Shown here: piece by piece, positions 31,709-32,146 of the stretch
Numbering within the stretch: position 1 is the first letter of the stretch
How the letters are laid out: each line of letters starts with the position of its first letter
Origin: Escherichia phage Turkey3
Reading direction: 5' to 3' (one strand)
Length of the DNA: 64,000 nucleotides
Sequence record: PQ471515.1
Translations under genes and position numbers: made by a program
Notes under the pieces: generated by a model
What the model was told of the DNA's origin: nothing
The model's input: only the letters and a program-made list of their open reading frames with translations
Database searches by the model: none

Positions 31709-32146
31709 ATGACACGCATTAACTTAGTACACGTTAAAGAACTTGCTGACCAACATCTGATGGCTGAATATCGTGAACTCCCACGTGTATTTGGTGCTGT
31801 ACAAAAACACGTTCAAGCACGTAAGCGTGTACGTGATTTCAAAATTAACAGTACTTACCTGTTAGGTTCAGGTCATGTAACATTCTTCTACAACAAGTTA
31901 CTGTACTTACAGAAGCGTCATATTGATATTGTTAACGAATGTTTGCGTCGTGGTATGAAGATTCAAAACACTGAAGTAAACGACATTAGCGGCTTCCCTG
32001 CTGAGTTTTGTAATGACTACGTACCATCGGAGTCAGAGATTAAAATGTCTCGTGAGCGTTTGATTGAGAAGCTCCAGATGAAGCCTACTTGGTATAAATT
32101 TACTGACGTTGACTTACCTGATTACTATACCGAGATGATTAAATAA
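31709..32146 (+). CDS. denV: endonuclease V, pyrimidine-dimer DNA glycosylase/AP lyase (T4 DenV homolog)
   Basis: N-terminus [31 protein letters not shown] and internal [13 protein letters not shown]-terminal PTWYKF match T4 DenV as I remember it; catalytic N-terminal Thr and Glu in AEYRE are conserved. Confidence 0.85.

Follow-up and report, generated by a model that had tools for sequence, protein, structure and literature searches.

A conserved denV gene behind a predicted PeSL-type terminator/promoter element in the Asteriusvirus jumbo phage Turkey3

T4 endonuclease V, the product of the denV gene, has 138 residues and uses the α-amino group of its N-terminal threonine as the nucleophile, with Glu23 as a catalytic residue and Arg3, Arg22, Arg26, Arg117, and Lys121 as basic DNA-binding residues. 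In all, we take twelve of its residues (T2, R3, Q15, H16, R22, E23, R26, R117, K121, W128, Y129, and K130) to be catalytic or DNA-binding. The T4 gene is preceded by an early-type promoter of the form GTTTAC-N17-TACTAT. PeSLs (promoter-early stem-loops) were first described in Straboviridae; those of the nt-1/KVP40 type in T4-like phages combine a σ70-type promoter with a GC stem-loop, following the consensus A3-4G3-loop-C3T3-4 and TTGYVH-N17-TAWWAT (Arbiol 2010, PMC2839356; Comeau 2014, PMC4122927). They lie between genes, point the same way as these, and cluster among small ORFs, and some indel junctions lie at their edges. For RaK2-like phages, the CBB paper reports merely "RpoD-like promoters with UP-like element", and the name PeSL was not found for RaK2-like or Asteriusvirus elements in the literature searched.

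We analyzed a stretch of 64,000 nucleotides from Escherichia phage Turkey3 (PQ471515.1), here called the window, for which a preliminary description had proposed a denV homolog in a cassette that looked mobile and a phage that was T4-like or another large lytic one. Only the second half of this last assignment stands: the source is a jumbo coliphage of about 350 kb from the genus Asteriusvirus (121Q/PBECO4/WPEC5 group, RaK2-like) and is not strictly T4-like. The best relatives of the window are WPEC5, slurp01, and 121Q (348–381 kb; 93–98% nucleotide identity; Asteriusvirus taxonomy lines), and the denV region is 90–98% identical to Asteriusvirus genomes of 348–386 kb. The genes flanking denV have orthologs in RaK2-like phages only, or share about 38% identity with their homologs from T4-like phages. 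Turkey3 denV is already known, as its product is 100% identical to the annotated WPEC5 protein (XUI95245.1), and orthologs have been annotated in 121Q, RaK2, GAP32, and CBB. It is thus an ordinary finding and of little importance alone, DenV being among the best-understood DNA-repair enzymes.

Judged by its sequence, the denV ORF is a genuine and apparently functional DenV homolog. It matches Pfam family PF03013 (Pyr_excise; 5.5e-15, 55.9 bits versus a cut-off of 23) and PHROG 1183, "endonuclease V N-glycosylase UV repair enzyme" (5.6e-59), and it aligns with the solved structure of T4 endonuclease V (PDB 2END; see also 1VAS) at E = 3.8e-54, residues 1–131 falling on 1–131 without a gap. Its identity to the T4 protein is 64.1% by tblastn and 61% in a MAFFT alignment, which upholds the strong match to T4 DenV proposed at the outset. 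The N-terminus reads MTRINL, with Thr directly after the initiator Met and no in-frame start upstream, and the MTRIN start is found in 24/24 aligned DenV homologs. The twelve T4 residues named above are all kept, among them the N-terminal Thr and the Glu of the AEYRE motif that the preliminary description had pointed out as catalytic; they correspond to Thr2 and Glu23, the latter being the second E of the motif. The C-terminal aromatic segment, WYKF, is identical in three of four positions to Trp128-Tyr129-Lys130-Tyr131 of T4, the exchange of Y131 for F being conservative. The two proteins differ in length (145 residues here) and in their C-terminal tails, YYGKAIYA in T4 being replaced by other sequence. 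Against seven orthologs, dN/dS of denV is 0.08–0.17, with dS saturated for CBB, indicating strong purifying selection.

The orthologs in RaK2-like jumbo phages comprise, besides the WPEC5 protein, 121Q gp217, RaK2 denV, K64-1 gp364, CBB_519/gp460, and GAP32_498. The Turkey3 protein shares 92–96% identity with those of other Asteriusvirus phages, 81% with those of Klebsiella phages, and 66–72% with those of Mimasvirus. RaK2-like DenVs form one clade (199/200 bootstraps), which is sister to Tevenvirinae DenV; the other Straboviridae DenVs are merely 34–40% identical. The features of the locus are collected in Table 1.

Table 1. Features of the denV locus in the Turkey3 window (positions in the 64,000-nt stretch)
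Feature	Position	Strand	Remarks
HNH endonuclease remnant, free-standing gene	31567-31704	+	45-codon ORF
Upstream PeSL-type element	31641-31680	+	A-tract, hairpin, U-run, promoter; directly 5' of denV; arms 31643-31655/31660-31672, loop UUCA; -35 TTGACT 31651-31656 within 5' arm; TG 31672-31673; -10 TATAAT 31675-31680; RNA fold -17.3 kcal/mol, z=-3.95, 0/200 shuffles as stable
Shine-Dalgarno-like GAGAGGA of denV	31695-31701	+	7 nt 5' of ATG; shared by the upstream regions of all Asteriusvirus
denV, pyrimidine-dimer DNA glycosylase/AP lyase, T4 endonuclease V homolog	31709-32146	+	145 aa, ATG start
Variable 3' tail of denV	32112-32146	+	blastn blocks
71-aa ORF, doubtful coding status	32162-32377	+	stop codon TGA lies within the following -35 hexamer, TTGACT
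Downstream PeSL-type element	32364-32403	+	hairpin 32368-32378/32383-32393, UUCG loop; -35 32374-32379; -10 32398-32403; RNA fold -16.7 kcal/mol, z=-4.41
PeSL-bounded cassette, 432-aa putative homing-type endonuclease	32446-33744	+	4.9 tandem 192-nt (64-aa) repeats (TRF)
Next PeSL copy	33755-33787	+	-20 kcal/mol, z=-5.78

The stem-loop/promoter elements said to bracket denV are indeed there, as near-identical 33-nt copies at 31648–31680 (GGGTTGACTTCAGTCGGCCCTTTTTGCTATAAT) and 32371–32403 (GGGTTGACTTCGGTCAGCCCTTTTTGCTATAAT). The window holds 7–8 matches to the 33-mer, versus 0 in 100 shuffles, and ten copies of the hairpin core, all on the + strand and all between 12.2 and 36.5 kb. When aligned, the ten copies are AT-rich upstream, lie intergenically between a stop codon and the next SD/ATG, and are co-oriented with the genes. 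They cluster among small or variable ORFs, and gene content at 12.2–36.5 kb varies between close relatives. The arrangement TTGACT-18 nt-TATAAT, which agrees with the σ70 consensus in 11/12 positions and carries a TG before the −10 hexamer, occurs at 27354, 31651, 32374, 33758, and 36518. The hairpins fold at −14.1 to −20 kcal/mol (z −3.95 to −5.82; 0–1/200 shuffles as stable), with loops that are mostly UUCG and occasionally of the GNRA type. In sense-strand copies, the 3' arm reads GTCAGCC (67 unique copies), GTCAACC (11), or GTCGGCC (6); these variants yield U·G or U–A pairs in the + strand RNA, which fits a hairpin at the RNA level. A generic terminator scan of the window passed over the PeSL hairpins, in which it assigned the U-run to an A/U-extended stem; it flagged the same kind of element at 26666–26691 on the opposite strand. 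The 64-kb window contained no tRNA genes.

By sequence, the elements are of the PeSL type, that is, composites of a predicted σ70 promoter and a predicted terminator hairpin. With the nt-1/KVP40-type PeSLs they share the combination of σ70-type promoter and GC stem-loop, the A-rich 5' side, the A3G3-loop-C3T5 stem, the TTGACT −35 hexamer, and the intergenic and gene-co-oriented placement among small ORFs; some indel junctions also lie at their edges, though not clearly more often than chance would place them. They differ in their occurrence in a RaK2-like jumbo phage and not in Straboviridae, in the perfect TATAAT −10 hexamer, in the TG extension, and in the promoter spacer of 18 nt instead of 17. 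Compared with T4, an early-type promoter likewise precedes denV, but the T4-type early promoter is replaced by a predicted host-consensus σ70 promoter embedded in a hairpin, in the genome of an Asteriusvirus jumbo phage. The same element directly precedes denV in Asteriusvirus, K64-1, CBB, and the Xanthomonas phage XbC2.

The homology, the conserved residues, the selection, the synteny, the anatomy of the elements, and the positions of the junctions were established directly; from these we infer that the enzyme is active and that the promoters and terminators function, as well as any part of the elements in recombination. We consider it very probable that denV encodes a functional DenV ortholog, is served by a PeSL-type terminator/promoter, and has long been passed down vertically within the RaK2-like lineage. 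Going by homology, removal of the initiator Met would free the α-amino group of Thr2 to attack C1' of the 5' pyrimidine in a cyclobutane pyrimidine dimer, with assistance from Glu23. A Schiff-base intermediate would arise in this glycosylase step, β-elimination would then nick the DNA in the AP-lyase step, and the lesion in the UV-damaged phage DNA would be handed to excision repair. In what appears to be an early, small-ORF-rich region of the Asteriusvirus genome, host σ70 RNA polymerase would transcribe denV from the near-consensus extended −10 promoter (TTGACT-18 nt-TGcTATAAT), whose −35 hexamer lies in the 5' arm of a GC-rich hairpin with a tetraloop and a trailing U-run. Transcription from upstream would end at this hairpin, some 15 nt short of the new start site, in the manner of a PeSL-type terminator/promoter. 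The direct repeats of about 45–60 nt would mark transcription-unit boundaries, and some inter-genome recombination junctions fall on these repeats.

As to its history, denV is a fixed, long-standing, vertically kept, and selected resident of the RaK2-like lineage, and the flux sits in its neighbors. Every genome that carries the neighboring gene at 29879–30433 (33 distinct ones from Asteriusvirus, 7 from RaK2-like Klebsiella phages) also has denV, and comparison of the record lists for DenV and for this neighbor revealed no denV-less genome. The 256-aa ATPase gene (36576–37346) was unfit as a marker for counting relatives, as it gave more than 1,300 matches, including T4-likes at about 38% identity. 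The position of denV was identical in 11/11 loci looked at (ten Asteriusvirus, one Klebsiella), as was the upstream element in all RaK2-like orthologs looked at but GAP32; these phages differ only in the denV 3' tail, with products of 145, 171, or 259 aa, and in the adjacent ORFs. Decay of the gene was seen in SD-1_S14, where it is truncated, in SD-15_S21, where it is fused, and perhaps in SD-6_S16, where a two-piece match points to a possible frameshift.

The variable parts of the locus are the HNH gene upstream, the 3' tail of denV, and, downstream, ORFs and a repeat-rich endonuclease cassette. The first 28 codons of the HNH remnant correspond to the first 5 plus the last 23 codons of the intact gene, and 327 nt between two AAGTGTAT direct repeats are missing from the window copy. 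WPEC3 has an intact 137-aa ORF at this site (L009:3668-4081; PHROG 2255 "HNH endonuclease", 9.3e-32), for which no Pfam match was found at 0.01; remnants or other inserts occupy the site in 8/10 Asteriusvirus relatives. At the 3' end of denV, homology by blastn stops at 32112 for the alleles of 121Q, BF17, E9.1, UB, and SD-15, and at 32128 for those of slurp01 and SHEFM2K. A short allele (145 aa) exists beside one with an acidic tail, ...EEQIKDEMNNY (171 aa), also found in XbC2, and denV of SD-15_S21 is a 259-aa fusion.

Downstream, the 71-aa ORF lies between both elements, so that the bracketed unit holds more than denV. This ORF was found only in WPEC5, WPEC3, and CMSTMSU among 10 relatives; it has no Pfam or PHROG matches and no clear SD, and its pN and pS against WPEC3 are 0.079 and 0.082. 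The 432-aa ORF matches PHROG 559 "HNH endonuclease" (3.7e-78) and PHROG 681 "endonuclease" (3.8e-75). A cassette is present at its site in 4/10 relatives, including WPEC5, with two adjacent fragments that show 61–99% amino acid identity by segment, and WPEC3 and CMSTMSU, with 42–49% identical alleles. Pfam gave nothing credible for the HNH gene, the 71-, 432-, 471-, and 365-aa ORFs, or 121Q gp218/219; matches on the 432-aa repeat protein were spurious, with zero significant stretches. Among these ORFs, a PHROG assignment was obtained for two alone, the HNH gene and the 432-aa endonuclease, and the window ORFs at 34043–35458 and 35409–36506 had no Pfam or PHROG family match.

In blastn blocks, homology junctions fall at PeSL edges at 31633–31643, 32427, 33752, and 36508–36512, and away from PeSLs at the two sites within the 3' end of denV and where genes end, at 31555–31582 and 34031–34054. 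Homology to WPEC3 and CMSTMSU stops at 32427, just 3' of the downstream element, and homology to eight relatives restarts at 33752, the 5' edge of the next PeSL copy. Four of eight distinct junction sites are thus at PeSL edges, but PeSLs also fill about 4 of about 10 intergenic spaces, and after correction for this preference for intergenic sites, the coincidence is not clearly above chance.

It is quite possible, if somewhat short of an even chance, that mosaicism near denV stems mainly from free-standing homing endonucleases, through double-strand break repair with co-conversion of the flanks, and that the PeSLs are mere intergenic landmarks where endonuclease genes insert harmlessly. In WPEC3, the HNH gene stands just 5' of the PeSL that precedes denV; in UB, the window, WPEC5, slurp01, E9.1, and SHEFM2K, it has decayed to varying degrees. 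A jump in divergence coincides with the HNH insertion site in WPEC3 and with a different insert at that site in CMSTMSU; BF17 also carries a different insert there. An endonuclease-like gene supported by PHROG matches lies downstream in the window, and such genes occur in E9.1, slurp01, SHEFM2K, and WPEC5 where the window has 34043–36506. Homing endonucleases were also named as a parallel mechanism by Comeau et al. (PMC4122927). Against this, support for the HNH call comes from an HNH-like motif and from PHROG, Pfam having given no match, and several junctions lie exactly at PeSL 5' edges far from endonuclease genes, for instance at 36508–36512. The two explanations are compatible, and homing does not exclude the PeSL-type model that we prefer.

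The proposal that the bracketed gene looks like a mobile cassette, moving in and out by recombination between the flanking PeSLs (mini-circle excision and integration), fared worse, and we regard it as unlikely. It can draw on two 33-nt direct repeats, 31/33 identical and 723 nt apart, on BF17, in which two PeSLs enclose denV alone, and on the demonstration of PeSL mini-circles in RB49/phi1 (PMC2839356). The sister relation of the RaK2-like and Tevenvirinae DenVs further points to at least one old inter-lineage transfer. The denV block is also distinctly more diverged than the upstream block in WPEC3 (p = 0.005) and CMSTMSU (p = 0.0005), from which it follows that allelic exchange of the cassette happens; in 121Q, BF17, and slurp01 its divergence is indistinguishable from that of the adjacent conserved block (Fisher p = 0.58–1). 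Such allelic replacement was seen only in WPEC3 and CMSTMSU, and gain or loss of the gene was not seen. What speaks against mobility is the very constancy described above, with denV in all 33 and all 7 genomes, at one locus and behind the same upstream element wherever these were looked at, and with the RaK2-like DenVs as one monophyletic group. In addition, most variants have their right-hand junction within denV (32112, 32128), not at a PeSL. Separate denV contigs of 1,994 nt in two public assemblies (ECO103 4-12-1 and EC22.5-2) were considered as a mini-circle or other extrachromosomal form, but they end in endonuclease repeat units, not in PeSLs, and their coverage matches that of the main contig (521x vs 581x); they are therefore assembly breaks, not circles. 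The locus resembles phage "morons" in having one accessory-type gene with a promoter and a terminator of its own on its flanks; morons, however, are sporadic and lack conserved repeated flanks, whereas here the flanks belong to a repeated family and the gene is lineage-wide. Bracketing by repeated regulatory elements thus should not be equated with mobility, as the bracketed denV is stable and its neighbors turn over.

Similarly improbable is a role of the hairpins other than termination, as phage-protein binding sites, as RNA-processing or stabilizing 3' structures, or as recombination-stimulating DNA cruciforms. The stem is very strongly conserved, its 25-nt core is common to several phage families, and Arbiol et al. 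(PMC2839356) speculated about a specific binding protein. Yet a hairpin followed by a U-run is the textbook design of an intrinsic terminator, each copy points the same way as the genes and sits after a stop codon and ahead of the following start, and the stem-loop of an RB49 PeSL was reported to be an effective terminator in vivo (PMC2839356). The cruciform has the further difficulty that the dominant U·G pairs become C·A mismatches on the other strand, making for a weaker DNA structure. That the DenV homolog itself is inactive or has drifted to another activity, as the exchange of Y131 for F and a C-terminal tail unlike that of T4 and dimorphic within the genus might suggest, is highly improbable given that every residue taken as catalytic or DNA-binding is kept and that residues 1–131 are gap-free with dN/dS of about 0.1.

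The PeSL architecture, so far described for T4-like phages, thus appears also to organize the early region of RaK2-like jumbo phages, in nearly invariant sequence that should be useful for annotating promoters and terminators in 350-kb RaK2-like genomes. The 25-nt core (GGGTTGACTTCGGTCAGCCCTTTTT) is identical, and again intergenic, in two members of Straboviridae, Vibrio phage D480 (KVP40-like) and Aeromonas phage 65. We tentatively raise the idea, which we think has a minor chance of being right, that one promoter-terminator hairpin family is common to RaK2-like phages and distant Straboviridae, by descent or exchange, and constitutes an inter-family pool of linkers. If so, portable recombination and expression linkers could explain why the DenV of enterobacterial jumbo phages is sister to that of T-even phages. 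The common core could alternatively reflect convergence on a −35 hexamer, a UUCG tetraloop, and a U-run.

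The product of denV matches the Pfam pyrimidine dimer DNA glycosylase family PF03013 with 55.9 bits (cut-off 23) and PHROG 1183, 'endonuclease V N-glycosylase UV repair enzyme', at 5.6e-59. Crystallised T4 endonuclease V aligns with it without gaps, residues 1-131 on 1-131 (E = 3.8e-54), and tblastn puts its identity to T4 DenV at 64%, a multiple alignment at 61%. These Pfam, PHROG and structure matches bear out the preliminary description, which had called the gene a homolog of T4 endonuclease V that keeps the catalytic Thr and Glu: Thr2 and Glu23 are both identical, as are Arg3, Gln15, His16, Arg22, Arg26, Arg117, Lys121, Trp128, Tyr129 and Lys130, and Tyr131 of T4 is replaced by Phe. 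These T4 residues are taken as the essential ones, following the structural literature on the enzyme. The N-terminal Met-Thr would permit removal of Met and so expose the Thr2 α-amino nucleophile; the T4 mechanism, a Schiff-base glycosylase step at cyclobutane pyrimidine dimers followed by β-elimination, would then presumably apply. Judged by codon substitutions, denV is under strong purifying selection, with dN/dS values of 0.08-0.17 versus seven orthologs from 121Q to GAP32 (Nei-Gojobori, codons 1-135; dS was saturated in the CBB comparison). The gene, its orthologs and the family are already known and annotated.

A megablast search with positions 30900-34100 matched solely jumbo phages of the 121Q/PBECO4 group (348-386 kb), including WPEC5, slurp01, E9.1, SHEFM2K and 121Q, several with a taxonomy line reading Asteriusvirus. 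Because all matches belong to this group, the window phage is a RaK2-like jumbo coliphage; the earlier placement among 'T4-like or other large lytic phages' is thus loosely right but does not hold in its strict T4-like sense. Identities to genomes of the group were 90-98%, and the region is mosaic, since no single record accounts for over 70% of the query. The WPEC5 DenV, already annotated as endonuclease V, is 100% identical to that of the window, and further orthologs are annotated in 121Q (gp217), RaK2 (denV), K64-1, GAP32 and CBB, the last listed as 'UV repair endonuclease V (CBB_519)' (PMC5259590).

Features in and around the denV unit
Feature	Position	Strand	Remarks
HNH gene remnant	31567-31704		45-codon ORF; in-frame 327-nt deletion between two AAGTGTAT direct repeats
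PeSL copies flanking denV	31648-31680; 32371-32403	+	differ at 2 of 33 positions
Shine-Dalgarno-like motif	7 nt 5' of denV	+	GAGAGGA
denV	31709-32146	+	ATG-initiated ORF, 145 aa
71-aa ORF	32162-32377		after denV, inside the bracketed segment
PeSL-bounded cassette	32446-33744		432-aa putative endonuclease; PHROG 559/681 endonuclease families
Two large overlapping ORFs	34043-35458; 35409-36506		471 aa; 365 aa
P-loop ATPase	36576-37346		256 aa; PHROG 1250; weak AAA/STAND Pfam matches

The two stem-loop/promoter elements that had been described as bracketing denV were both found (see table), and the unit that they enclose holds, besides denV, the 71-aa ORF that the preliminary description had omitted. 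A 33-mer of the element gave 7-8 matches in the window versus 0 in 100 shuffles. Its core, GGTTGACTTCGGTCAGCC, occurs in ten copies (≤3 mismatches), every one on the + strand between 12.2 and 36.5 kb of the window and intergenic, with a stop codon on one side and the next SD/ATG on the other. The consensus consists of an A-tract, GGGTTGAC, UUCG, GTCAGCCC, T5, GC, TATAAT and then TATTTCATCAA; the 5' hairpin arm is at the same time the -35 TTGACT, and an 18-nt spacer leads to a perfect -10 with TG before it. The hairpin RNAs fold with -14 to -20 kcal/mol (z -3.95 to -5.8). In the unique copies pooled across the window and every comparison locus retrieved, the 3' arms are GTCAGCC (n=67), GTCAACC (n=11) and GTCGGCC (n=6), variants that pair through U·G or U-A on the sense strand and give C·A mismatches on the opposite strand; the loops are mostly UUCG and now and then GNRA-type (GAAA, GAGA, GUGA). 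As read from the sequence, the design joins an intrinsic terminator to a σ70 promoter. The label PeSL is apt, as the elements follow the sequence criteria of Arbiol et al. and Comeau et al. and, in particular, fit the nt-1/KVP40 consensus A3-4G3-loop-C3T3-4 with TTGYVH-N17-TAWWAT (PMC2839356, PMC4122927). Two of the hairpin copies, at 25089-25106 and 26670-26687, are terminator-only variants: the 3' arm, GTCAACC, is perfectly complementary and the -10 is poor or missing; a generic scan scored 26666-26691 as a minus-strand terminator, and this hairpin may act bidirectionally.

The exact 25-nt core GGGTTGACTTCGGTCAGCCCTTTTT is also intergenic in the KVP40-like Vibrio phage D480 (locus L024:601-647) and in Aeromonas phage 65 (L025:601-637), and recurs in 17 IMG/VR stretches (L026-L042), most on contigs of about 350 kb. 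These Straboviridae phages share it with RaK2-like jumbo phages, an identity that common descent, exchange or convergence could each account for. T4 denV differs: it has its own upstream early-type promoter, GTTTAC-N17-TACTAT (T4 locus L016:1940-2000), which overlaps a 9-bp inverted repeat, CTCCTGTAG...CTACAGGAG, with the SD inside its 3' arm, and this arrangement is not homologous to the RaK2-like one. Among the papers open to searching, none was found to describe PeSLs in RaK2-like phages, and the CBB paper speaks of RpoD-like promoters only (PMC5259590). The sole point that is mildly new is that T4-type PeSLs also punctuate the RaK2-like early region, where their core matches, base for base, copies from a KVP40-like Vibrio phage and Aeromonas phage 65.

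From its flanking elements, denV had been proposed to be a mobile cassette. We mapped the window ORFs and PeSLs on ten Asteriusvirus loci and one Klebsiella locus, then on K64-1, GAP32, CBB and XbC2. Every Asteriusvirus mapped has the order ORF216-like gene, optional insert, PeSL, denV, with an almost invariant 60 nt from PeSL to ATG. denV stands directly behind the same PeSL in K64-1, CBB and XbC2; in GAP32, no PeSL was found directly before it. All records with the neighbour gene 29879-30433 contain denV (33 distinct Asteriusvirus, 7 Klebsiella phages), and three of the reduced Salmonella SD genomes carry it in altered form (SD-1_S14 has a truncated gene, SD-15_S21 a fusion of 259 aa and SD-6_S16 a match in two pieces). 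Neighbour joining places the RaK2-like DenVs in a single clade (199/200), with the Tevenvirinae DenVs as its sister group (176/200); the DenVs of RB43, nt-1 and an Aeromonas T4-like phage show only 34-40% identity. Locus, presence and tree together make denV an old gene that the RaK2-like lineage has kept by vertical descent; an exchange with the T-even lineage happened once at most, in the distant past. Monophyletic, present in every record with the neighbour gene and at the same place in the Asteriusvirus loci mapped, denV itself lends no support to the proposed mobility.

The surroundings of denV, and its alleles, do vary. The slot 5' of the denV PeSL is empty in 121Q and SD-15, holds an intact 137-aa HNH endonuclease gene in WPEC3 (L009:3668-4081; PHROG 2255, 9e-32), another insert in BF17 and CMSTMSU, and decayed HNH copies in UB, the window, WPEC5, slurp01, E9.1 and SHEFM2K, with varying decay states among UB, slurp01, SHEFM2K and E9.1. 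The window remnant keeps 'CSNHHRMVH', the end of the HNH motif, and has lost the middle. Within denV itself, homology to 121Q, BF17, E9.1, UB and SD-15 breaks off at 32112, and that to slurp01 and SHEFM2K at 32128, resulting in 145-aa, 171-aa and 259-aa alleles. The C-terminal tail is dimorphic in Asteriusvirus (window 32112-32146; comparison loci L002:4120-4232 and L015:3421-3540), a short form ending in PDYYTEMIK (144-145 aa) versus a 171-aa form with an acidic tail ending in STDMFDEIEEQIKDEMNNY; an acidic tail is also found in Xanthomonas phage XbC2 (179 aa). The alleles are followed variously by the 71-aa ORF, gp218 and gp219, gp219 alone or nothing.

Block-wise identities show general mosaicism, and in WPEC3 (p=0.005) and CMSTMSU (p=0.0005; Fisher) divergence is significantly higher in the denV block than in the one upstream of the HNH/PeSL site. 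Recombination has therefore swapped alleles of the denV unit, although the gene itself is never absent. Co-conversion driven by a homing endonuclease is at least as good an explanation of this exchange as PeSL recombination. Homology begins again precisely at the 5' edge of PeSLs (31633-31643, 33752, 36508-36512) and ends just 3' of a PeSL at 32427; four of the eight distinct junction sites lie at PeSL edges and four elsewhere, and a large share of the intergenic spaces holds PeSLs. The association of PeSLs with junctions is no more than suggestive.

Whether the 71-aa ORF is a real gene is doubtful: it has no family match and no clear SD, its stop is the TGA within the -35 TTGACT of the next promoter, and pN about equals pS versus WPEC3 and CMSTMSU (0.079 and 0.082 versus WPEC3). 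In the 432-aa ORF of the following cassette, a 192-nt (64-aa) unit, KKTTEQFIKDAKEKRTDIDF.YSKVNY.N..TKVT.IDPE.GEF..TP..FL.G.GHP, is present in 4.9 tandem copies, to which a C-terminal domain is added. Only four of the ten relatives have a cassette at this position; the WPEC3 and CMSTMSU alleles are 42-49% identical, and the closest copy, in WPEC5, is annotated as two adjacent fragments, and more fragments follow downstream in both orientations. The repeats break short-read assemblies, as in the 1,994-nt contigs of ECO103 4-12-1 and EC22.5-2.

Genes between the ORF at 33814-34056 and the PeSL at 36515 are variable among relatives. Neither the 471-aa nor the 365-aa ORF matches a Pfam or PHROG family. 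BF17 has both at 100% identity, but in 121Q, E9.1, SHEFM2K, slurp01 and WPEC5 they are missing or HNH/'homing endonuclease' genes take their place; 34043-36506 is another replaceable segment, ending at that PeSL. Tandem arrays of paralogous ORFs (~112-115 aa, hydrophobic N-terminal regions) lie at 28120-29155 (three copies, 26-30% identity within) and 37414-38748 (four copies), with copy number varying, for example by one extra in SHEFM2K and UB. The block 28120-29800 is 83% identical to the 121Q group and 98-99% to WPEC5, BF17 and WPEC3. The P-loop ATPase is conserved in RaK2-like phages and has homologs of ~38% identity in >1,200 T4-like phage records, often annotated 'thioredoxin' or hypothetical; a divergent allele occurs in WPEC3 (59% aa) and CMSTMSU (36-55% aa by segment).
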